64,000 nucleotides of DNA from Alphaproteobacteria bacterium (GTDB lineage Bacteria > Pseudomonadota > Alphaproteobacteria > JAPOUT01 > G958296285): NCBI GenBank assembly GCA_965212075.1, contig OZ243043.1:582763-646762 (forward strand), read 5' to 3'. Of the stretch, positions 3,450-59,699 are shown in pieces. The notes below the pieces were generated by a model. The model saw only the letters and a list, made by a program, of their open reading frames with translations, was not told the origin of the DNA and searched no databases. Within the stretch, counting starts at the first letter, position 1. Every line of letters starts with the position of its first letter. The position numbers and the translations under genes were made by a program.

Positions 3450-3773
3450 ATGAGCGAAGACAGCAAAAATGGCGGCGGCACGAATCTGGGGGTCATCACG
3501 CGTCCTGATGTGCGCACGAAAAAACCGGCGCTTTATAAAGTGCTGCTTTTGAATGACGATTATACGCCGATGGAATTTGTCGTGATTGTGCTTGAGCGGT
3601 TTTTTCATAAGGGCGCAGAGGAGGCCGCGCGCCTAATGCTTCAAGTTCATCAAAATGGCGTGGGGATTTGCGGTGTCTTTACCTATGAGATCGCTGAGAC
3701 GAAAGTTACGCAAGTGATGGATTTCGCGCGCCAAAATGAACACCCGCTCCAATGCGCTATGGAAAAAGCGTAG
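3450..3773 (+). CDS. clpS: ATP-dependent Clp protease adaptor ClpS
   Basis: [62 protein letters not shown] is a canonical ClpS core. Confidence 0.93.
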
Positions 3774-3809: not shown

Positions 3810-6128
3810 ATGGCTTTATTATCATCATCTTTGGAGCAAGCGCTGCGTCTTGCGATTGATTATGCGCATCAATATCGCCATGAATATGTGATGCTTGAGC
3901 ATTTGCTGCTCGCGCTGATTGATGAAAAAGACGCGAAGCAAGTTTTTGCGGCCTGCGCCGTTGATGGCGATCAATTGCGCCGCGACATCAAAGATTGGCT
4001 GGAAAAAGAAATCCCGCAAGTGGAAGATGAGAGCAAAGACCATCCGCAGCCGACGATGGGGTTCCAGCGCGTCATTCAGCGGGCGATTTTTCACGTGCAA
4101 GGCGCCGGACGCAGCGAAGTGAACGGCGCGAATGTGCTGGTTGCGCTTTATGCCGAGCGCGAAAGCCACGCCGTGCATTTTTTACAAGAACAGAATATGT
4201 CGCGGCATGATGCGGTATCTTTTATCAGCCATGGGGTCACGAAAGATCAGGCGGTTGACGATATGCAATCTTCTGATCAAGAACAGGGGGAACAGAGCGG
4301 AGAAGAGAAAAAAAGTGAAAGAACGCATAAAGCTCTTGAAAAATGGTGCGTGGACTTAAATAAAAAAGCGGAAGAGGATAAAATTGACCCTCTGATTGGC
4401 CGCCAAAAAGAGGTGCGCCGCACGATTCAAATTTTATGTCGGCGGCGCAAGAACAATCCGATCTATGTCGGTGATCCGGGCGTTGGCAAGACGGCGATTG
4501 CGGAAGGCCTCGCGCGGCGGATCGTCAAGGACGATGTGCCCGATGTGCTGCATGATGCGCGGATTTTCTCTTTAGATATGGGCGCTTTGTTAGGCGGCAC
4601 GCGCTATCGCGGTGATTTTGAGGAGCGGCTCAAGGCTGTGCTCAAAGCTTTGGACAAAACGCCCGGCGCAGTCTTGTTCATTGATGAGATTCATACCGTG
4701 ATCGGCGCGGGCGCAGCAAGCGGCGGCACGATGGACGCTTCCAATTTACTCAAGCCCGCTTTGCAAAACGGCACTTTGCGCTGCATAGGTGCGACGACCT
4801 ATAAAGAATATCGGCGGCATTTTCAAAAAGATCGCGCGCTGACGCGCCGCTTTGAAAAAATAGATGTTGAAGAGCCTAGCATCAGCGAGACGATCAAAAT
4901 CCTCAACGGGCTGAAATCATATTTTGAGGAGTTTCACGCGCTGCGCTATACCTCCCATGCGCTCAAATCGGCGGTGGAGCTGTCGGCGCGCTATATGCAT
5001 GAGCGCAAGCTGCCCGACAAAGCAATCGACGTGATTGACGAAGCTGGCGCTGCGCAGCGCCTTCTGCCCAAGAGCCGCCGCAAGAAGGTGCTCGGCGTCA
5101 AGGATATTGAGGCGATCGTCGCGACGATGGCGCGCATCGCGCCCAAAACCATTTCAAAAGATGCGAGCGCGCAGCTTCATCAATTGCCGGAATCGCTCAA
5201 GCGGGTGGTGTTTGGGCAGGAGCAGGCGATTGAGGCTTTGTCGGCGGCGATCCGCACGGCGCGCGCCGGTCTGCGCGAGGGCGGCAAGCCGGTTGGCAGC
5301 TATCTGTTCTGCGGCCCGACCGGCGTCGGCAAGACTGAAATCGCACGCGCTTTGGCCGAAATTATGGGCGTGGAGATGCTGCGCTTTGACATGTCCGAAT
5401 ATATGGAGCGCCATACGGTTTCGCGGCTGATCGGCGCGCCGCCGGGCTATGTCGGCTTTGATCAGGGCGGGCTGCTGACCGACGGGGTGGATCAGCACCC
5501 TCATTGTGTGCTGCTGCTTGACGAGGTTGAAAAGGCGCATCCCGATATATTCAACATCCTGCTTCAGGTGATGGATCACGGCAAGCTGACCGACCATAAT
5601 GGCCGCAAGACCGATTTCAGCAATGTGATTTTGGTGATGACGACCAATGCGGGCGCGGTTGATATGGCGCGGGCACCCCTAGGCTTTGCGCGAGGCCGCC
5701 GCGAGGGCGACGATAAAGAGGCGATTGAGCGGATGTTCTCGCCGGAGTTCCGCAACCGCCTTGATGCGGTGATCCCGTTTGCGTCTCTGTCGCCGGAGCA
5801 TATCGCGCTTGTCGTCCAGAAATTCATTTACGAGCTGGAAGCGCAGCTGGCCGATCGCCAAGTGATGATTGAGCTTTCCGATGATGCGAACAAATGGATT
5901 GCCGAGCGGGGCTATGACGAAAAAATGGGCGCGCGGCCTCTGGCGCGCGTGATCCAGCAGGAGGTCAAGAAGCCGCTCGCCGACGAGATTTTGTTCGGCA
6001 AGTTAAAGAAGGGCGGCGTCGTGCAGGTTTCGGTTGATCTGTCGGGCAAAAAATTAAAGTTCAAGATTTTGCCTTTAGAAAAAAACTCAAAAAAGCAGGA
6101 ATCTTCAGATGAACCGCAAACATCTTAA
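3810..6128 (+). CDS. clpA: ATP-dependent Clp protease ATP-binding subunit ClpA
   Basis: 772 aa with an N-terminal Clp_N domain and two AAA+ modules (GDPGVGKTAIAEGLA, FCGPTGVGKTEIARALA). It follows clpS as in the conserved clpS-clpA operon. Confidence 0.95.
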   Translation: MALLSSSLEQALRLAIDYAHQYRHEYVMLEHLLLALIDEKDAKQVFAACAVDGDQLRRDIKDWLEKEIPQVEDESKDHPQPTMGFQRVIQRAIFHVQGAGRSEVNGANVLVALYAERESHAVHFLQEQNMSRHDAVSFISHGVTKDQAVDDMQSSDQEQGEQSGEEKKSERTHKALEKWCVDLNKKAEEDKIDPLIGRQKEVRRTIQILCRRRKNNPIYVGDPGVGKTAIAEGLARRIVKDDVPDVLHDARIFSLDMGALLGGTRYRGDFEERLKAVLKALDKTPGAVLFIDEIHTVIGAGAASGGTMDASNLLKPALQNGTLRCIGATTYKEYRRHFQKDRALTRRFEKIDVEEPSISETIKILNGLKSYFEEFHALRYTSHALKSAVELSARYMHERKLPDKAIDVIDEAGAAQRLLPKSRRKKVLGVKDIEAIVATMARIAPKTISKDASAQLHQLPESLKRVVFGQEQAIEALSAAIRTARAGLREGGKPVGSYLFCGPTGVGKTEIARALAEIMGVEMLRFDMSEYMERHTVSRLIGAPPGYVGFDQGGLLTDGVDQHPHCVLLLDEVEKAHPDIFNILLQVMDHGKLTDHNGRKTDFSNVILVMTTNAGAVDMARAPLGFARGRREGDDKEAIERMFSPEFRNRLDAVIPFASLSPEHIALVVQKFIYELEAQLADRQVMIELSDDANKWIAERGYDEKMGARPLARVIQQEVKKPLADEILFGKLKKGGVVQVSVDLSGKKLKFKILPLEKNSKKQESSDEPQTS

Positions 6129-6397
6129 AGTTTAAGCTCTTACTGCACCAGTGATAGAGAAAAGAGGCAGAAAACTGGCTGTATTTTGCTGAATCCAAGT
6201 CATTGATTTTTTCAATTTTTTTTAAAAATGGCCTTGACTCCTTTTACATCACCTATCAAACTACCCCCTATCGCTAAATGTATGGATAACCCTTGTTGGG
6301 TTTCCTACTAAATATAATACCCGGCACAGATCGGGTTTCCCCGTTTTTTCGGGGAATAGGTGGGGCATGATTTTTCCATGCGTTTAGCGATAAAACC

Positions 6398-6422
6398 CGG
6401 CACCTTCGGGTGCCGTTTTTTT
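6398..6422 (+). terminator. Intrinsic-terminator-like hairpin (CGGCACC-TTCG-GGTGCCG followed by T7) inside the leader of the downstream gene
   Basis: A perfect 7-bp GC-rich stem with a TTCG tetraloop is immediately followed by TTTTTTT. It lies 270 bp downstream of the clpA stop and about 20 bp upstream of the probable ATG at 6444. A second hairpin, CCCCG-T6-CGGGG, sits at 6339-6354. Confidence 0.55.
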
Positions 6423-6443
6423 AACGCAAATATGCAGGGGGGA

Positions 6444-7301
6444 ATGATGATGGGTATTCAGAAAACTTTTTTTAACAAGACCTTAGCTGGGTTTCTGGCT
6501 TTAAGTGTGGCACTGGGCACATTTCCGATAGAGGCTTTAGCTGAACACACGGAAACGAGATCTTGCCCAGCGACTATTGCTAGTTTTGGGAGTGGATTTG
6601 ATACTTCCCTAAGCGGCTCCACTCTGACTGCATCGGCGGTGGAGGGTGAAAATAATTGCATTTACGACCGAACTGGTGGCAATTCATTTGCATTGCGTAC
6701 CACCGGCGATACTTATTTAGCGGTTATCAATGGTGGTGTGCATCAAAATGATGACGGGAGTGAGACAACCTTCACGGCTAATTCAGTTGGTGTTGTAACT
6801 GCGCAATCCACTCCGAGAAGTAGTAGCAGTAGTAGCGGCAGCAGCAGCAGTTCCGGTGCCGTTGTCGGCGGGATCGTTGGTGGACTCGCCGGATTAGGGC
6901 TTTTGATTTGGTGGTGGGCAGCTTCCGGCGATGATGAAGACTCACAACTCATCCAATTCCATGACTTAGGGGCAAATTCTTATTTGCCCGCAAGGTCCTG
7001 GTTGGGCGTAGAACATGCCATCACAGACAATGCCAAATTTGCTCTCGGCACTTTCTGGCTGTCGGATGGCTCGGTCAATACGATTATTCCGTCCGTGGAT
7101 AATTCGGGTGTGGATGTTCGCTTGTCTTTGGCGACACGCATCGGCGAGGTTTCCTTCAGTGGGGCTGCTTATAATCATGGCGGGGCCTCACTAGATTATA
7201 ACAATAGCAGCATTGAAAACATCTTTGCTAATACGCTTGAATCCAGCGCTAACTCTGAAGTTGGCTATGCGGTCGGTTTGAACTGGCGCATGTCGTTTTA
7301 A
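6444..7301 (+). CDS. Hypothetical secreted/membrane protein with Ser-rich linker
   Basis: ATG at 6444 is preceded by GGGGGGAATG. It has a signal peptide (MMMGIQKTFFNKTLAGFLALSVALGTFPIEALA), a two-Cys N-domain, an SSSSSSGSSSSSG linker, a hydrophobic Gly-rich segment (GAVVGGIVGGLAGLGLLIWWW), and a C-terminal region ending ...GYAVGLNWRMSF with a terminal Phe. GC looks lower than in flanking genes. The ORF-track start at 6360 would place the terminator hairpin inside the CDS. Confidence 0.55.
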   Translation: MMMGIQKTFFNKTLAGFLALSVALGTFPIEALAEHTETRSCPATIASFGSGFDTSLSGSTLTASAVEGENNCIYDRTGGNSFALRTTGDTYLAVINGGVHQNDDGSETTFTANSVGVVTAQSTPRSSSSSSGSSSSSGAVVGGIVGGLAGLGLLIWWWAASGDDEDSQLIQFHDLGANSYLPARSWLGVEHAITDNAKFALGTFWLSDGSVNTIIPSVDNSGVDVRLSLATRIGEVSFSGAAYNHGGASLDYNNSSIENIFANTLESSANSEVGYAVGLNWRMSF

Positions 7302-7318: not shown

Positions 7319-8533
7319 TTAAATCGGATGAACCGCATGATCTCCCTTGATGTTGCCCAGCTTGCGGCGCGGTGAGGGCGGCGCTTGGCTCTCGGCATAG
7401 CCCATGCGGAACGCAAATGTTGGCTGCATCCGATTTTTCACGAGCTTCCTTAATTGGCGATCCATGCGCGCGGGCTTGTTGAGCATGCGCTCGCGATCAA
7501 CAATTTCTACGGTCTGGTTGATCGGGTGCATCGCGATGCCGCGCTCAGTCGCCATCAGATGAAGCCTTTGCCATAATTGTCCGGCGGCGAGCGAGTTCTT
7601 GACCGTCCAGCGTGTGCGCACCGCAATAATGCCGGCCAGCGGCGCTGTCGCAAGATGAACATTGCGCGTTGCATCAGCCCAAGCTTGATGGCTGTCTTCA
7701 GACGACAAAGCAGGCAGCATTTTTGCCGCCATCAAAATCATCGGCGAAAGTCCGGCGGTGTCCAGCGTGACGCCATCGCGATGGCGTTCAATTTCTTCCG
7801 GCGAGCCGCGAAACCAATGATGGCTCGCGGCCACCATATCTTCATCGTGGATAATTGTTTCTGTCGCCTGATTGGTCAATTTGTCAAAAAGCTCGCGTGA
7901 GCGGCCTTCATCAAAAAAAGATAAAGAGATACTCACAGCGCGCGCAGCGGTTTGAAACAAATTAACGATATCGCCAGGGATCGGCCTGTCGCGCAGATAG
8001 GCACCGCGATTTGTGTGGCGCTGTCCGATGGCCTGATAGAGCGCGCTGCGTGTCGGCTGTGCGCGCGTGAGCGTCAATGTCGCGATGAGCTTTTGTTCGG
8101 GGTTTTGAGGAATCGCGTTCAATCTGCCGCCCGTCAGATTGACCTCAGCCCTCCAGCCATGAGCAGGCGCGGCAAGCAGCATATTCTCAATCGCGCAGCC
8201 CAGCCCGATATGCATTTCGCGCAAATAGGGGTCAAACGCGCCGAGATTGCGGCGCTGGTCGGCATAAAGGCGGATGATTTTCTGCTCCGCGCTTTCATCC
8301 ACTTCAAAAACCCAAGGCTGCGTGTTATGAGGATTGGCCGCGAGCATGCCGGCGATCGCAATGGCTGTCGGCGTCCCCTGATATTGCGGATCGTCCCAAA
8401 GCGTCCATAATTTCCACGGATCGCCCTGCGCGACCGAAAAGGCATCGCGGCGCACACCGTGCCAGACGAACCCGCCAAGCGCGACGAACAAAGTTCCGCC
8501 GCCATATTTCAGCAGATCGCGCCGCGAGATCAT
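7319..8533 (-). CDS. Tat-signal (twin-arginine) exported protein, putatively nitroreductase-like
   Basis: The N-terminus MISRRDLLKYGGGTLFVALGGFVW is a classic RRxLLK Tat motif followed by an h-region. The body has nitroreductase-like segments (IGQRHTNRGAY; C-terminal ...GQLWQRLHLMATERGIAMHPI). The family assignment is weak. Confidence 0.55.
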   Translation of the reverse strand: MISRRDLLKYGGGTLFVALGGFVWHGVRRDAFSVAQGDPWKLWTLWDDPQYQGTPTAIAIAGMLAANPHNTQPWVFEVDESAEQKIIRLYADQRRNLGAFDPYLREMHIGLGCAIENMLLAAPAHGWRAEVNLTGGRLNAIPQNPEQKLIATLTLTRAQPTRSALYQAIGQRHTNRGAYLRDRPIPGDIVNLFQTAARAVSISLSFFDEGRSRELFDKLTNQATETIIHDEDMVAASHHWFRGSPEEIERHRDGVTLDTAGLSPMILMAAKMLPALSSEDSHQAWADATRNVHLATAPLAGIIAVRTRWTVKNSLAAGQLWQRLHLMATERGIAMHPINQTVEIVDRERMLNKPARMDRQLRKLVKNRMQPTFAFRMGYAESQAPPSPRRKLGNIKGDHAVHPI

Positions 8534-21322: not shown

Positions 21323-21982
21323 ATGGATATAGGCAAGATATTTTTTTCACTTCTGCTATGCGCGGGGCTTCTAGCCTGCTCCCAAGAGGAAAGTGCGCAG
21401 CTAAAAGAATTACGTCAGCTCGCTGGTGAAAGCGATAAGATGGCGCAGTTTGGCTTGGCGACTTTATATTATGAAGGCAAGGAAATTGCGCGTAATTATG
21501 AGGAAGCCGCGCGCTGGTATCGTTTGGCCGCCGGACAGGGTCTGCCTGATGCGCAATTTCACTTAGGCCAGCTTTATGATGAAGGGCGAGGTGTCGTGCA
21601 AAATCCCAAACAGGCGCATGATTGGTATTTGAAAGCCGCGCAGCAAAATTATCACGATGCGCAATATAGGCTGGCTCTGCTTTATGAGCAGGGCAGAGGC
21701 ATTACCAAAGATTATGCTCAAGCTGAGGCTTGGTATCGGCAGGCGGCGGCTTTAGGTCATGTCCGCGCGCTGAACAATTTGGGCGTGATGTATGTTGAGG
21801 GCAGAGGAGTTCCGCAGAATAAAATTTTTGCCTATATTTGGTTTGATTTGGCGTCAAAGTTTGGCCATAAGCAGGCGACAAAACGCCGTGATGACATCGC
21901 CGCGCAAATGACCGTCAACGAGCTTGAAAATGCTGAAAAACAAGCGCAGCGTTTATTAACAGAAATTAAAGCCAGAAGGTAA
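21323..21982 (+). CDS. Sel1-like repeat (SLR) lipoprotein
   Basis: Lipoprotein signal MDIGKIFFSLLLCAGLLACSQ followed by about five SLR units (A..WYRLAAGQGLPDAQF.LG.LY.EGRGV..N..QA..WY.KAA). Confidence 0.8.
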   Translation: MDIGKIFFSLLLCAGLLACSQEESAQLKELRQLAGESDKMAQFGLATLYYEGKEIARNYEEAARWYRLAAGQGLPDAQFHLGQLYDEGRGVVQNPKQAHDWYLKAAQQNYHDAQYRLALLYEQGRGITKDYAQAEAWYRQAAALGHVRALNNLGVMYVEGRGVPQNKIFAYIWFDLASKFGHKQATKRRDDIAAQMTVNELENAEKQAQRLLTEIKARR

Positions 21983-22003
21983 TATAAAGACGATAATATA
22001 AAT

Positions 22004-22567
22004 ATGAGGGCAATGATGTATTCTTCTTTTGTTCGGCGCGCCCTGATGCCGCGTATCTTATCGGCGCTCATTTTAAGCGCCCTATTCATTTCACAGACCA
22101 CGCAGGCTAAGGAGAGCAATATGCTTCATTTGGATTTAAAAACAGGCCGTGTGGTCATTGAGCTTCTGCCCGAATTGGCGCCAAAACATGTTGAACGCGT
22201 CAAGCAGCTCACGCGCGAGGGCTTTTATGATGGCGTGGTTTTTCATCGGGTGATTGAGGGCTTTATGGCGCAGACAGGAGATCCCACCGGCACGGGCACG
22301 GGCGGCTCGTCTTATGGTCATTTGCCTGCTGAATTTACGTGGGATGCGACTTTTGGGCGTGGCACTGTCGGCGCTGCGCGCGCGCAAGACCCTGACAGCG
22401 CTGATAGCCAGTTTTTCATCTGTTTTGCTGATGCAAGCTTTCTTGACGGCCAGTATACGATCTGGGGGCGTGTGGTCAGCGGCATGGAGCATGTCGACAA
22501 AATCGTCCGCGGCGAGCCGCCAGCAAATCCGGATAAAATCATCAAAATGTCCTTAGCCAGAGATTAA
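22004..22567 (+). CDS. ppiB: Peptidyl-prolyl cis-trans isomerase, cyclophilin type (periplasmic)
   Basis: Signal peptide (ILSALILSALFISQTTQA) and cyclophilin core FHRVIEGFMAQTGDPTGTGTGGS...QFFICF. Confidence 0.9.
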   Translation: MRAMMYSSFVRRALMPRILSALILSALFISQTTQAKESNMLHLDLKTGRVVIELLPELAPKHVERVKQLTREGFYDGVVFHRVIEGFMAQTGDPTGTGTGGSSYGHLPAEFTWDATFGRGTVGAARAQDPDSADSQFFICFADASFLDGQYTIWGRVVSGMEHVDKIVRGEPPANPDKIIKMSLARD

Positions 22568-22589
22568 CGTCCTCTAAATAGGTAAGACG

Positions 22590-23855
22590 ATGCCACGCAC
22601 AAACATAAATCCCTCAGAAAATCTTCAGGGAAATTCTCAGGGAAATTCTCAAGAAAATTTTCAAGACGCCGAGCAGCTTTTTGACAAGGGATGGATCGCC
22701 GATCAAAAGGGCCGCTATGATGAAGCTGTAAATTGCTTTCTTCAAGCAGCGAGGCTCGGTTATGCGCCTGCTCAATTTATTATGGGCGTGATAAAGCAAG
22801 AAGGCCATGTTGCTAATCAGAATTATGTTCGGGCCAAGAAATGGTATCAAAGAGCCAAAGTCCAGAATCACGCTGGCGCAGCTAACAATTTAGCTTTGCT
22901 TTTTGAAGAAGGGCGCGGTGTTCCCGAGAAGGATATTCTGCGTGCTATAAAGCTGTTTAACTTCGCCGCCAATGGAGGCAGCGTTGATGCACTCGTCAAT
23001 CTTGCGCGCGTCTATGAGAATGGGGTTGGCGTTTTGCCCGATCAAAACCGCGCGGCGCGTCTATATCGGCAGGCAGCGATGCAGGGGCATGCTGTCGCGC
23101 AATTTTGCCTCGGTGTGATGTATGAGGAAGGGCGCGGCAGCAAGCGTGATCATTGGAAAGCCGTGCGCTGGTATCGCAAAGCCGCCGCCCAGAATGACGC
23201 ATGGGCGCAATATTATTTAGGTCTGATCTATGCAAGCGGCAGCAGCAAAAAGCATGCGCGCCGCGCCTTTCACTGGTTCAGCGAGGCTGCCGCGCAGGGT
23301 TTGCCCGGTGCCCAGCATAGTCTGGGGCTCTTGTTTGAGCAGGGTCGTGGCGTTGCTGAAGATTTTGATGAGGCGATGCTCTGGTTTCGCAAAGCGGCAG
23401 AAGGGGGGGGTAGTGACGCGCAGAATCATTTGGGCTTGATTTTTGCTGAGGGCAAGAATGTTGAGCAAGATTTTCAGCAGGCTGAGCTTTGGTGGCAGCA
23501 GGCGGCAGAGCAGGGGCATGTGCGTGCGCAGTTCAATCTGGGCATGCTTTTTTATCAGGGGCAGGCTCGGATTGAGCGTGATGATGATGCGGCTTTGCAT
23601 TGGTTTCGTGAGGCTGCTTATGGCGGACATGCACAAGCGCAGTTTTATTTGGGCTTGATGTATAAGGATGGCCGCGCCGCGGAGCAGGATGATGTGATGG
23701 CATATAAGTGGTTTGATATTGCGATGCAGTTTGGTGCAGCCGAAGCGCGGGAGCTTCGGCAGGATATTGCGCGCCAAATGCCGTCCGCGCAGCTTGCTGA
23801 GGCCAAGACAGAAGCCGAAGATTGGATCAAAAATTTTAAAAGTCTCCAAAAATGA
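22590..23855 (+). CDS. Sel1-like repeat protein, 421 aa, no evident signal peptide
   Basis: About ten consecutive SLR units with the (A..W(Y/F)R(K/Q)AAEQG...AQ..LG.(M/L)Y..G.GV..D...A..W) pattern. The N-terminus is hydrophilic. Confidence 0.8.
   Translation: MPRTNINPSENLQGNSQGNSQENFQDAEQLFDKGWIADQKGRYDEAVNCFLQAARLGYAPAQFIMGVIKQEGHVANQNYVRAKKWYQRAKVQNHAGAANNLALLFEEGRGVPEKDILRAIKLFNFAANGGSVDALVNLARVYENGVGVLPDQNRAARLYRQAAMQGHAVAQFCLGVMYEEGRGSKRDHWKAVRWYRKAAAQNDAWAQYYLGLIYASGSSKKHARRAFHWFSEAAAQGLPGAQHSLGLLFEQGRGVAEDFDEAMLWFRKAAEGGGSDAQNHLGLIFAEGKNVEQDFQQAELWWQQAAEQGHVRAQFNLGMLFYQGQARIERDDDAALHWFREAAYGGHAQAQFYLGLMYKDGRAAEQDDVMAYKWFDIAMQFGAAEARELRQDIARQMPSAQLAEAKTEAEDWIKNFKSLQK
22627..22662 (+). 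repeat. 12-bp tandem repeat, two perfect copies of cagggaaattct plus a third diverged copy, encoding QGNS-QGNS-QENF at the N-terminus of the 421-aa Sel1 protein
   Basis: The sequence reads cagggaaattct cagggaaattct caagaaaatttt. Confidence 0.5.
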
Positions 23856-24619
23856 ACGCACGTAAAATGAACGCATGTAATGTGATTTTGGCGTTTGGAT
23901 TGTTATTTTTAACGGCTTGCTCCGAACCGGATGCAGGCTTTAAGAAGGGGCTTGAGGCTTACCAGAAAAAAAATTATCCGCAAGCTTTGGAATGGTTTAG
24001 CCGTCATGCAGATTTGGGGCGTGCAGCGGCGCAATTTTATTTGGGATTGATGTATGAGCGTGGCGAGGGAACCGCGCGTAATGCGCGGCGTGCGGCATCT
24101 CTTTATCATAAGGCTGCCAAACAAGGCCATGCGCGTGCGCAGTTTCACTTGGGGCTTTTATATGAAGACGGGCGCGGTGTTGCGCAGGATTATCGCCAAG
24201 CGGCGCATTTTTATCGCAAGGCGGCAGAGCAGAACATTACCGAAGCGCAATTCAATTTGGGCGTGATGTATGATTATGGCCGTGGTGTTGAGAGAAATCG
24301 GCGCCAAGCGCTCAATTGGTATCGCCTATCGGCGGAAAAGGGTCATGTGCGCGCGCAGTTCAATTTGGGCGTGATCTATGCCGAAGGCCGCGATGTGCCG
24401 CGCAGCATCGTTTTGGGACATCAGTGGATGAACATTGCCTTTGCGCTGGGTCATGCGCCGGCAAAAAAAATGCGTGATGATTATGCGCTTCGCATGACGC
24501 CGGATCAATTATTGACAGCACAAAAAAGCGCGACCGACTGGCTTAAAAAATTTGAAGCGCGTGCCCCCAAGCTTTCGGAATGGAATCGAATTCGCCAGAG
24601 CAAAGGCAAGAAAAGGTAA
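23852..24619 (+). CDS. Sel1-like repeat lipoprotein
   Basis: Lipobox LFLTACSEPD followed by about six SLR units. The ATGA start overlaps the previous Sel1 gene stop. Confidence 0.8.
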   Translation: MNARKMNACNVILAFGLLFLTACSEPDAGFKKGLEAYQKKNYPQALEWFSRHADLGRAAAQFYLGLMYERGEGTARNARRAASLYHKAAKQGHARAQFHLGLLYEDGRGVAQDYRQAAHFYRKAAEQNITEAQFNLGVMYDYGRGVERNRRQALNWYRLSAEKGHVRAQFNLGVIYAEGRDVPRSIVLGHQWMNIAFALGHAPAKKMRDDYALRMTPDQLLTAQKSATDWLKKFEARAPKLSEWNRIRQSKGKKR

Positions 24620-56217: not shown

Positions 56218-57381
56218 TTGCCGGTTGAGATCAAGACTCCACAAACGGCGACTTTGATGGGCACAGGCAAAGTAAAAGAGCTTCAAACGCGCATGGCTGA
56301 ACTTGATGTTGAGCTTGTGATTGTCAATGCTGCTTTGACTCCGAGCCAGCAGCGCAATCTTGAACGCGCTTGGCAGGTCAAAGTTCTTGATCGCACTGGC
56401 TTGATCTTGGAAATTTTTAGCACGCGCGCGCGGACAAAAGAAGCGCGGCTGCAAGTGTCGCTGGCACAGGAGGTCTATCAAAAAACGCGGCTCGTGCGCT
56501 CTTGGACGCATCTTGAACGGCAGCGCGGCGGCGGCGGCTTCTTGGGCGGGCCGGGCGAGCGCCAAATTGAATCAGACCGCCGTCAAATATCGGCGCGCAT
56601 CATAAAATTGAAAAAACAATTACGCGCCGTGCGCCAGCGCCGAGAGCAAATGCGCGCCGCGCGGCAAAAAGCAGCCTGGCCGGTGATTGCTTTGGTCGGC
56701 TACACCAATGCAGGCAAAACCACTTTATTTAATCTTTTAACGAGCGCGGATGTTCCGGCACGCAACAGATTATTTGACACGCTTGATCCCAAAATGCGCG
56801 CGATGAGTCTGCCAAATGGCCAGCAGGCGATTTTATCGGATACGGTCGGCTTTGTGTCTGATCTGCCGCATGACCTTGTGGCGGCATTTCGCGCGACTTT
56901 GGAAGAGGTTAGCGCGGCTGATGTAATTGTTCATGTCCGCGATATTTCCCATCACGACAGCCTCGCGCAAAAGCTGGATGTAGAGAAGATTTTACACACG
57001 CTAAATCTCAGCACCGATGCACAAAAGATCATTGAAGTTTTGAACAAGGCGGATTTGGCGCATGAGATTTCTGAAAATAAGAATGGCGGGTCTCATCCGA
57101 TTTTGCTCTCGGCGGCGACAGGTGCCGGTGTAGAATCTTTACGCGCGCGCATTGAGAACATTCTCAATGAAAAAAGGCAGCTGCGCCATTTTCGGGTTCG
57201 CCTGCTGCCCTGTCATCATGGTTCTGGTGCAGCCTCGGCGTTTCTATATGAAAGAGGGCAGGTGCTGCGCCGCAGCCACGATGATGAAGGCACCGCCATG
57301 CTGGACGTCGTTCTGCCAATTTATGCGGAAAGGGTTTTCAGAAAAAAATTCGGGAATATCCTCAACCTAGTTGAGGATTAG
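56218..57381 (+). CDS. hflX: GTPase HflX (coordinates give the TTG-start core; the coding region probably extends upstream to about 56101)
   Basis: HflX N-domain (LVIVNAALTPSQQRNLERAWQVKVLDRTGLILEIF), G domain GYTNAGKTTLFN, DTVGF, NKAD. The same frame is open back to 56065 and encodes HflX-like sequence, but no ATG/GTG/TTG occurs before 56218. Confidence 0.85.
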   Translation: MPVEIKTPQTATLMGTGKVKELQTRMAELDVELVIVNAALTPSQQRNLERAWQVKVLDRTGLILEIFSTRARTKEARLQVSLAQEVYQKTRLVRSWTHLERQRGGGGFLGGPGERQIESDRRQISARIIKLKKQLRAVRQRREQMRAARQKAAWPVIALVGYTNAGKTTLFNLLTSADVPARNRLFDTLDPKMRAMSLPNGQQAILSDTVGFVSDLPHDLVAAFRATLEEVSAADVIVHVRDISHHDSLAQKLDVEKILHTLNLSTDAQKIIEVLNKADLAHEISENKNGGSHPILLSAATGAGVESLRARIENILNEKRQLRHFRVRLLPCHHGSGAASAFLYERGQVLRRSHDDEGTAMLDVVLPIYAERVFRKKFGNILNLVED

Positions 57382-58741
57382 ACAGTTCGCTTTGCTCGAG
57401 CTTGGCGCGCATGATTTCCTGTTTCTGCTCGGTCAGCGGATAATTCCACATGAGCAGTCCGGCGGTAAGCCAGCATAGTCCGGGCAGAATGATATAAATC
57501 GCGAGCAGCAAATTAAGCGTCTCGGGTGAGTTTTCCGCCCGAGGCTGGAACGCGATCAAATCAAGCAAAGGGTAGGTGAGGCCGATGGACAGAGCAAGGC
57601 CGATCTTTTCAACCAGATTGAGCAGCGAAAAACATAGACCCGTGCGCTTTTGTCCTGATTCGAGCTGGTCAAAATCGGCGAAATCGGCCATCAGCGCGCG
57701 GAGTAAAAATGGCCCGGCACCATAGGCGATGCCATAGGCCGTGAGCCAAAAAAATCCCAGCCAGAACATGCCGCTCGGCAGCAAAAAACCCGTCGAGAGC
57801 ATCACAAAGGCATAAAGCACCGAGACCGTCAACGCGCGGTGCTTGCCGAAATATTTGCTCATCCAAATCCAAAAAGGCACAGCGATCACGCTGGAAACAA
57901 AATAAACCAGCAGCAAAAGGTTTCTATCTTCGCCGAGCATAAAGACATAGGAGATCAGATAAATATAAAGCGCGCCGGTCATGCCCAGCGCCAAAGCAAC
58001 CATCAGACCGGCCGCAAGCAGGCGGCGCAAGACAGCATCTTTAGCAAAAAACCGTATCCCGGCCTGCCAATCAAGCCGCGCCACCGCGCTGGCGGGTGCT
58101 TTTTCCTGCGGCGTGCCGCCTAAAGTAATCAAAGCGCATAAAGGCGTTGAGACCATGATGAACGTCCCCATCATCCAGACCGCCGAAACTTCGCCCTCAA
58201 CCCCAAAAACCTCCCAGATCGCCGGAAGGGCGAGCACCATAACCATGCCGGCAATGAGCGCCACCTCGCGCCAGCCTTGTATGCGCGCGCGCTCGTGATA
58301 ATAGGGCGACAATTCCGCTCCCCACGACATATGCGAAATGCTCGTCATCGTCGTCGCGATATAGATCAAGAACAGCCAGAAGCCCAGATAAAACGGCGTT
58401 GATGCGCCGCCGCTCGGGAGGAATAAATACCACGCGCATAAAATCTGCAGCGGCACCGCGAGCGCAATCCACGGGCGGCGGCGGCCCCAGCGCGTCGGCA
58501 GATAATCGCTCAGCGCGCCAAAAAACGGATCGGTGAACACATCCCAAAAGCGCGCGATCATAAAAATCAAGCCGACCGCTGTCGCGCCAATCCCCAATTC
58601 GCTCGCGTAAAAGGGCGGCAGATGCACCACAAGAGGCAGACCTAATGCCGAAATCGGCAGCGCCATAAACGAAAATGAGCCAATCTGCCAGTTGGATAAA
58701 GATGCTTTTGGCGTCTGCGCCTGTTGTGGCTGTTTACTCAT
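57362..58741 (-). CDS. MFS transporter, glycoside-pentoside-hexuronide (GPH/MelB-like) family
   Basis: 12-TM protein carrying the GPH signature GALSDYLPTRWGRRRPW. Confidence 0.82.
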   Translation of the reverse strand: MSKQPQQAQTPKASLSNWQIGSFSFMALPISALGLPLVVHLPPFYASELGIGATAVGLIFMIARFWDVFTDPFFGALSDYLPTRWGRRRPWIALAVPLQILCAWYLFLPSGGASTPFYLGFWLFLIYIATTMTSISHMSWGAELSPYYHERARIQGWREVALIAGMVMVLALPAIWEVFGVEGEVSAVWMMGTFIMVSTPLCALITLGGTPQEKAPASAVARLDWQAGIRFFAKDAVLRRLLAAGLMVALALGMTGALYIYLISYVFMLGEDRNLLLLVYFVSSVIAVPFWIWMSKYFGKHRALTVSVLYAFVMLSTGFLLPSGMFWLGFFWLTAYGIAYGAGPFLLRALMADFADFDQLESGQKRTGLCFSLLNLVEKIGLALSIGLTYPLLDLIAFQPRAENSPETLNLLLAIYIILPGLCWLTAGLLMWNYPLTEQKQEIMRAKLEQSELSNPQLG

Positions 58742-58808: not shown

Positions 58809-58896
58809 CGTATAATATATATTATGGTGAATCAGAGAGGTGCAGATAAAGCCCAGTCTAGGGCCTATAATAATTCACCATAATATATATTATACG
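58809..58896. repeat. Perfect 24-bp inverted repeat CGTATAATATATATTATGGTGAAT / ATTCACCATAATATATATTATACG with a 40-bp spacer
   Basis: Arms at 58809-58832 and 58873-58896 are exact reverse complements. Each arm contains the self-palindrome ATAATATATATTAT. The right arm abuts the MBL-hydrolase stop codon, and the element lies about 70 bp upstream of the MFS transporter start. Confidence 0.85.
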
Positions 58897-59699
58897 TAGT
58901 TTGGGAAATCCAGCACCATGCCGTCATAGGCCGGCTCGATGCCGTCAGGCAGTTCGCGCTTGAGCGTCTGGTAGTCCAAATCAATATGCATATTGGTCAA
59001 CACGCCGCGCTGCGGCTTGACTCGGGCGAGCCATTCAAGCGCGCGCTCAAGGTGCGCATGGGTCGGATGAGGCTGGTAGCGCAAAGTATCCACGATCCAA
59101 CATTCAACACCTCGGAGCGCGCTGAAGCTGGCTTCAGGCACTTCCACAACATCGGGCGCATAGGCCACCGGCCCGAAGCGGAAGCCCAGCGCATCCACCG
59201 AGCCGTGATGGAGCAAAAATGGCTCAAACCCAATATCGCCGCCGGGGCCGGAGATTTTACCCGACTCGGCGACCTGCAGCTCGTGGAGCTTCAAAAACTC
59301 CATATAGCCCGACCCCTCAATGGCTTGAAAGCAATAGCTGAAGCGTTTTGTCATGATGGCGGCGGTGGCTTTGTCCATATAGACATCGACACTCTGCCAG
59401 CGATTGATGAAAAAAGCGCGCAGATCATTGATGCCATGGGTCTGGTCGGCGTGGTGGTGGGTGTAGAGGACGCCGTCGAGCCAGTCCACGCCCCTGCCCA
59501 AGAGCTGGTCGTAGAGGTCAGGGGATGTGTCCACGAGAACGCGCGTCGCTTCCCCTGCCCCATTAAAGCGCTCAACGAGGATGGAGCAGCGGCGGCGGCG
59601 GTTTTTCGGCTCTTGAGGATCACACGCGCCCCAGTCGCCGCCAATCCGCGGTACGCCGCCGGAGGAGCCGCAGCCCAAAATCGTGACTCGCAGGCTCAA
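58890..59699 (-). CDS. MBL-fold metallo-hydrolase (PhnP-like)
   Basis: HTHHHADQTHGINDL is the HxHxDH metallo-beta-lactamase motif. It follows tatD as in the conserved alphaproteobacterial cluster. Confidence 0.82.
   Translation of the reverse strand: MSLRVTILGCGSSGGVPRIGGDWGACDPQEPKNRRRRCSILVERFNGAGEATRVLVDTSPDLYDQLLGRGVDWLDGVLYTHHHADQTHGINDLRAFFINRWQSVDVYMDKATAAIMTKRFSYCFQAIEGSGYMEFLKLHELQVAESGKISGPGGDIGFEPFLLHHGSVDALGFRFGPVAYAPDVVEVPEASFSALRGVECWIVDTLRYQPHPTHAHLERALEWLARVKPQRGVLTNMHIDLDYQTLKRELPDGIEPAYDGMVLDFPNYV

Follow-up and report, generated by a model that had tools for sequence, protein, structure and literature searches.

A candidate structured RNA followed by an intrinsic terminator between clpA and a putative surface-protein gene of an uncultivated alphaproteobacterium

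The intergenic region downstream of clpA in an uncultivated alphaproteobacterium, which belongs to a small-genome lineage with contigs of 1.6–1.9 Mb, harbors a candidate RNA element that combines a very stable predicted fold with an intrinsic terminator placed just ahead of the next start codon. The element was analysed within a 64-kb stretch of DNA, hereafter the window, where its sequence features, its fold and stability on one strand and its conservation in one relative could be described directly. We tentatively interpret it, at somewhat less than even confidence, as a lineage-restricted leader or element of the clpA 3' UTR that ends transcripts, and which would act as a constitutive attenuator or insulator combined with a translational lock.

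The element is located in a gap of 315 nt that separates clpA (3810–6128, plus strand), assigned from the list of open reading frames and from ClpA homologues, from an open reading frame of 285 residues on the same strand (6444–7301). Just upstream of clpA resides clpS (3450–3773), recognized by its Pfam family ClpS, and the 285-residue gene is followed by a convergent gene on the minus strand encoding an Acg-family FMN oxidoreductase (7319–8533). As had been noticed in a first-pass annotation of the same DNA, the region past the clpA stop codon is AT-rich, with a GC content of 0.37–0.40 compared to about 0.55 in its flanks. It starts with a spacer (6129–6233, plus strand) that is 90% identical to the equivalent region of a related locus, L081, and that contains no hairpin or open reading frame conserved between the two. 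The spacer is succeeded on the plus strand by a promoter-like stretch (6234–6259) with TTGACT at 6234–6239 and CTATCAA at 6253–6259, by the sequence CCCCC (6264–6268), a candidate anti-Shine-Dalgarno sequence, and directly 3' of it by the core domain of the RNA (6269–6392). Further downstream on the same strand follow the intrinsic terminator (6398–6422), the G-run of a Shine-Dalgarno sequence (6437–6442) and three in-frame ATG codons (6444, 6447 and 6450), whose distance to the terminator amounts to 22–28 nt. The ATG at 6444 and its G-run had been described before, with a spacing of 20 nt to the preceding T-run; the G-run instead starts 15 nt past that run, leaving 14 nt in between.

When folded as RNA, the segment 6260–6425 reaches −71.1 kcal/mol, with a z-score of −6.2 relative to 200 dinucleotide shuffles, and the same structure is obtained from RNAfold and RNAalifold. 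In this structure, the core adopts a single compact three-way-junction domain, which folds on its own with −56.1 kcal/mol and which is closed by a helix of 18 bp (P1) formed by 6269–6286 and 6375–6392 on the plus strand. The first branch is a short hairpin (P2, AACCC-UUGUU-GGGUU, 6288–6302), which is invariant in L081, and the second a stem of 7 bp including three G-U pairs (P3, 6303–6309 with 6359–6365) that carries two further hairpins, P3a (ACCCGG-CACAGA-UCGGGU, 6319–6336) and P3b (UUCCCCG-U6-CGGGGAA, 6337–6356). Two junction segments within the core are predicted to be unpaired, AAAUAUAAU (6310–6318) and CAUGAUUUU (6366–6374). The former overlaps with a perfect TATAAT (6313–6318), which is kept in L081, has no usable −35 sequence at a distance of 16–18 nt and may be a coincidence of AT-rich sequence. 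The terminator starts 5 nt after P1 and comprises a 7-bp stem with six G-C pairs, a UUCG loop and a run of seven uridines, with a folding energy of −14 kcal/mol. It had already been described as CGGCACC-TTCG-GGTGCCG followed by T7 at 6398–6422, which our analysis reproduces. The other previously annotated hairpin, CCCCG-T6-CGGGG at 6339–6354, corresponds to P3b in a slightly shorter version, and what had been perceived as two hairpins has turned out to be part of a single multi-branched domain held together by the 18-bp helix, which had been overlooked.

The prominence of this fold becomes evident when the 64 kb are scanned as 399 windows of 160 nt and each strand is scored, as the element then ranks as the second most extreme locus, with z-scores of −6.6 on the plus and −4.9 on the minus strand. 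A strand bias is apparent from both calculations: the z-scores of −6.2 and −6.6 obtained for the plus strand weaken to −5.1 and −4.9 when the minus strand is folded. P1 and P3 together contain five non-Watson-Crick pairs, each of them a G-U pair on the plus strand, and the reverse complement folds 8 kcal/mol worse with a loss of P3. The modelled RNA fold is strand-specific and belongs to the plus strand. The strongest z-score of the window is found elsewhere, at a perfect 24-nt inverted repeat (CGTATAATATATATTATGGTGAAT and ATTCACCATAATATATATTATACG, separated by a 40-nt spacer, 58809–58896) between the minus-strand open reading frames 57362–58741 and 58890–59699. This repeat is unrelated to the element, and its high scores on both strands (−8.5 and −7.6) suggest a palindrome at the level of DNA, either an operator or a repeat element, rather than a strand-specific RNA.

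The succession of a structured domain, a terminator and a Shine-Dalgarno sequence would fit the geometry of a ligand-sensing riboswitch or of a classical attenuator, where terminator and antiterminator structures exclude each other, and the first-pass annotation had proposed such a switch from the sequence ACCCGGCAC, which is indeed found twice, at 6319 within P3a and at 6395 (two matches compared to 0.19 expected). We nevertheless regard a switch of this kind as highly improbable. The proposed alternative pairing (6331–6336 with 6395–6400), if forced, results in −48.5 instead of −71.1 kcal/mol and is thus placed 22.6 kcal/mol above the minimum-energy fold. Folding of the region has revealed neither mutually exclusive structures nor any competitor of the terminator, for which, as for P1, the pair probabilities are close to 1, and nascent transcripts extending to 6392, 6397, 6404 and 6408 are all predicted to display the same core with the 5' arm of the terminator free. 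The repeat itself is not conserved in L081, whose two copies differ from one another (ACCCGACAC and ACCCGGCGC). Known riboswitches contain a short, ligand-dependent P1, whereas the 18-bp helix found here is far more stable and would form with or without a ligand. Moreover, no described aptamer in Rfam 15 matches any part of the 64 kb at gathering score, and the conservation in front of the same class of genes that characterizes aptamers is not seen, since the element is found in two genomes and homologous genes in two related loci, L083 and L082, do not contain it. From the earlier proposal, it is the alternative of a small RNA or of premature termination that fits the structure, and not the riboswitch or antiterminator.

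A relationship to catalogued RNAs was not detected either. The comparison with Rfam that had been suggested along with the first-pass annotation did not reveal a match at gathering score for any family of release 15 in the 64 kb, and solely sub-threshold matches at E ≤ 10. The best of these by cmscan, Atu_C8 (RF02502, 24.1 bits) and sRNA-Xcc1 (RF02221, 21.4 bits), were both rejected, the former with a gathering score of 50 bits and an alignment that essentially equals the terminator hairpin, the latter with a gathering score of 53 bits and an alignment that requires an insertion of 27 nt at a place where 3 are present in the model. The element does not coincide with a tRNA or tmRNA. An attC-like site was considered in light of the sequence GTTGGGT (6295–6301), which fits GTTRRRY, and dismissed with the order of core and inverse core being wrong on both strands. 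A small protein gene was similarly discarded, as the ATG of a 27-residue open reading frame is lost in L081 and a 1-nt indel at 6339 shifts the frames crossing this position. Finally, an extension of the downstream gene to a GTG at 6360, whose frame is open in both genomes, was rejected, since the signal peptide would then lie hidden behind about 30 residues and the terminator would fall inside the gene.

The hexamer TTGACT had been annotated as a possible sigma70-like −35 sequence, and it is found at 6234–6239; a matching −10 hexamer was not recovered, as no sequence 16–18 nt further downstream passed the criteria of our sigma-70 promoter scan. L081 has both TTGACT and CTATCAA in unchanged form, whereas the spacer between them varies, and we treat a promoter near 6234 as a candidate only. 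If used, this promoter could drive a stand-alone gene for a trans-acting small RNA of about 154 nt, to which the following gene would be incidental, a scenario that we hold to be unlikely. It would account for the fact that a 17-nt spacing to the −35 sequence places the transcription start at about 6269, exactly where P1 begins, it would agree with the usual layout of small RNAs, where a compact fold is followed by a U7 terminator, and it would be in line with a core that is better conserved than its flanks. It is at odds with the missing −10 sequence, it leaves the downstream gene without a promoter, and the RNA is found in just two genomes. In addition, for the only seed-like unpaired segment tested, CAUGAUUUU, the number of complementary sites in the window (21 compared to 15 expected) does not amount to an enrichment.

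The conservation of the region was investigated in a comparison with L081, whose ClpA is 87% identical and whose syntenic locus contains the element at the same place and in a predicted fold of the same architecture (−63.9 kcal/mol, z = −5.4). The alignment with relatives that had been suggested earlier has thus provided a conserved counterpart with pair-preserving changes in its stems, although the covariation is minimal as only two sequences are compared. Between both genomes, clpA is 81% identical over 3810–5899, with 62% identity at third codon positions, the downstream gene is 71% identical and other intergenic regions range from 6 to 33%. Against this background, the core (6269–6392) shows four differences in 125 columns and the region comprising the terminator and the Shine-Dalgarno sequence (6393–6443) ten in 51, and the lower divergence of the core compared to its non-coding flanks (4/125 compared to 25/191) is significant in Fisher's test (p = 0.0025). 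All substitutions in stems are pair-preserving transitions, to be viewed in light of the fact that a random transition keeps a pair in 56% of cases and a transversion never does. In P3a of L081, a G-U pair is replaced by A-U; P3b is remodelled by the insertion of a U and a G-to-A change and still forms; and in the terminator stem, an A-U pair is replaced by G-C alongside two wobble changes, with pairing kept. P1, P2 and P3 are invariant and thus uninformative for or against a structure.

High identity alone does not imply selection on the RNA, as the low divergence includes the end of clpA and a recent exchange of a block is possible. In the last 159 nt of clpA, 3 out of 53 third positions differ compared to 38% over 3810–5899, and the final ~80 nt encode a lineage-specific tail and are common to the window and L081 only. 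Judged from this pattern, much of the raw identity can be attributed to a block of about 400 nt having recently been exchanged, and part of the conservation may stem from such recombination rather than from selection on the RNA. Within clpA, the segment around 5985–6045 is also conserved in the related loci L088 and L083, with 98% nucleotide identity between L081 and L088, and the synonymous conservation at the end of the gene (5970–6128) could either mark a recombination boundary or reflect a constraint on the coding sequence at the nucleotide level.

The distribution of the element is narrow. In species-representative genomes, no ClpA is more than 67% identical to that of the window, and the relatives at 62–67% do not contain the element according to searches by nhmmer and blastn and with R1, a covariance model built from it. 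Closer relatives were found solely in the metagenome assemblies of ENA and NCBI. In one of them, L083, with a ClpA that is also 87% identical, the 72 nt following clpA contain a promoter of the form TTGACA-N17-TAATAT and a Shine-Dalgarno sequence and no such RNA, and the next gene encodes a homologue of the downstream protein of 480 residues (E = 6e-51). In L082, a simple promoter-like leader with TTGACA and equally no element precedes a frameshifted homologue. In L084, L085 and L086, clpA is followed by 25–65 nt (25 in L084 and 65 in L086) and by other genes, and in L088 it abuts the convergent oxidoreductase gene with no cassette in between. None of the ClpA relatives L083–L088, which were identified in a protein search, contains the element, and the C-terminal tail of the L083 type is found in all 15 listed members of the ClpA cluster P0004. 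Two scans of metagenomes, with a pattern restricted to the loops and with a contiguous 22-mer, came back empty; the element was not found in a viral scan or a plasmid search, and a search of phages returned 35-nt terminator-like matches alone. In light of these negative searches of relatives and collections, the element is known from two genomes only.

The interval that separates clpA from the oxidoreductase gene is itself hypervariable among close relatives, being empty in L088, occupied by one surface-protein gene with or without an RNA leader in other genomes and by three genes in L082. The surface proteins encoded at this locus share a common signal peptide and C-terminal region and differ in their N-domains. 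The gene located 3' of clpA in L084 belongs to the Pfam family Sel1. In the window itself, a diverged array of ~108-nt repeats is found within coding sequence at ~21490–24400, which, as read from its period and motif, appears to be Sel1/TPR-like, and repeats of this kind might indicate a host-associated lifestyle.

The variability of the locus, where L088 contains no cassette and L082 and L084 other genes, would be compatible with a passenger without function, either the decayed remnant of a mobile or repeat element of the MITE type, with P1 representing its terminal inverted repeats, or a young exchanged block, and we consider this rather improbable. The long imperfect inverted repeat resembles such termini, and little and fairly even divergence is seen between the clpA tail and 6392. 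Still, with filters switched off, R1 detects a single copy in the 64-kb window and none in the other loci of relatives, including 80 distant clpA loci, all mismatches of the repeat are G-U pairs on the plus strand, the flanks are more diverged than the core and the substitutions in stems keep pairing. The boundaries of a putative insertion were likewise not recovered. The idea of a target-site duplication, prompted by CAAAC on both sides of the RNA, was dropped, as no convincing homology emerged when the region was aligned with the promoters of L082 and L083, which do not contain the RNA, and the flanks ...ACTACCCCC and AAAACCCGG... do not constitute a clean duplication.

The element could alternatively be a part of the clpSA operon, whose 3' UTR and terminator it would provide, with the domain either protecting the 3' end of the mRNA or being excised as a 3'UTR-derived small RNA. 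The hairpin at 6398–6422 is the first intrinsic terminator after the clpA stop codon that was recovered in a terminator scan, and the block of high identity to L081 extends without a break from the tail of clpA into intergenic sequence. Nevertheless, clpA is followed by neither a terminator nor a long UTR in relatives, where intergenic distances are as short as 72 (L083), 25 (L084) and 65 nt (L086), and such a role leaves the complementarity of CCCCC and the G-run and the missing promoter of the next gene unexplained, which is why we view this proposal as quite improbable.

The gene that follows the terminator encodes a protein of 285 residues with a Sec-type signal peptide, a variable N-domain, a poly-Ser linker, a hydrophobic helix and a conserved C-terminal region of about 125 residues that ends in WRMSF. 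Initiation at 6444, 6447 or 6450 would in each case give the protein a normal N-terminal Sec signal peptide. The protein does not belong to a Pfam or NCBIfam family, it has two homologues in 5.8 billion proteins, one of them being that of L081, and a profile search with its C-terminal domain returned P0002 as sole match. A model obtained with AlphaFold2 was unusable (pLDDT of 35). In its predicted organization, it resembles a secreted or membrane-anchored, lineage-specific and fast-evolving surface protein. Since the terminator precedes the start codon and the gap of 14 nt offers no room for a promoter, the transcription of this gene would depend on read-through.

It is in the read-through RNA that the candidate anti-Shine-Dalgarno sequence gains relevance. 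In the minimum-energy fold of this RNA, the CCCCC at 6264–6268 pairs with 6437–6441, with a pairing probability of about 1 in both the window and L081, and the predicted probability of the G-run being unpaired is about 0 in all read-through RNAs with a start no later than 6264. RNAs starting at 6269 or further downstream lose this pairing, as the anti-Shine-Dalgarno sequence would be absent from them.

From these features, we infer a sequence of events for the interpretation introduced above, of a constitutive attenuator or insulator with a translational lock. Transcripts would enter the region by read-through from clpSA, from a weak promoter near 6234, or from both, and their RNA would fold into the very stable three-way-junction domain, with the polymerase meeting the strong terminator 5 nt later. 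Most transcripts would presumably end at this point, giving rise to a stable small RNA or a clpA 3' end with a length of at least about 155 nt, and the surface-protein gene would be transcribed by read-through alone. In the read-through RNA, the Shine-Dalgarno sequence would in turn be clamped in vivo by the CCCCC adjoining the base of the domain, and its release would require a factor acting in trans, which might be a nuclease that cuts the long helix, a protein or another RNA. The combination of termination with a clamp of the Shine-Dalgarno sequence points to a constitutive attenuator or insulator plus lock rather than to a switch operated by a ligand. Evidence against this interpretation comes from L083 and L082, where homologous genes at the same position manage with a simple promoter and without the RNA.

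In a further-reaching interpretation, which we deem very unlikely, the element would represent a new class of cis-regulatory RNA gating a fast-evolving surface protein, with the three-way junction serving as receptor for a protein, a nuclease or a small molecule. Binding to the junction, or a cut by RNase III in the 18-bp helix, which is stacked on the CCCCC:GGGGG clamp, would then free the Shine-Dalgarno sequence and turn the gene on. This would constitute a two-layer lock of termination and long-range clamping with a trigger not yet described.

If the element is real, it would add an uncatalogued structured RNA from an uncultivated small-genome lineage of alphaproteobacteria and a clean example of a gene that is silenced at two levels, by termination and by occlusion of its Shine-Dalgarno sequence, as a consequence of an acquired leader. 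Its reach is limited to two genomes so far, and the orthologous loci of sister lineages, with their plain promoters, offer a natural comparison with and without the RNA for studying how such leaders are gained.

The architecture of the element finds its closest counterpart in UpsM of Rhodobacter sphaeroides, a 268-nt 5' UTR of the dcw cluster in which termination at a Rho-independent terminator gives rise to a small RNA (Weber et al., 2016; PMC5089854). Both are alphaproteobacterial leaders of about 270–300 nt with a terminator, in both cases termination would yield a small RNA and read-through the mRNA, and both are confined to a narrow lineage. The likeness is one of architecture, without detectable homology in sequence or structure and with no Rfam match to UpsM in the window. 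UpsM precedes the conserved mraZ/dcw genes, and its 5' and 3' ends, its processing by RNase E and its dependence on Hfq have been determined experimentally (PMC5089854). The element described here is further distinguished from UpsM by its 18-bp closing helix and the anti-Shine-Dalgarno clamp. With terminating riboswitches and with attenuators controlled by leader peptides or proteins, it shares the placement of a structured domain upstream of a terminator that precedes the start codon, and it differs from them in having no antiterminator, leader peptide or known aptamer and in a predicted P1 that is too stable for a dependence on ligands. A long imperfect inverted repeat enclosing about 90 nt, the intergenic location and the patchy occurrence among relatives are reminiscent of elements of the MITE or REP type, from which it is set apart by its single copy in the sequence examined and the strand-specific G-U pairs, and no target-site duplication was recovered. 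Collectively, these comparisons describe the element as an uncatalogued, lineage-restricted candidate for a structured RNA of a familiar kind.
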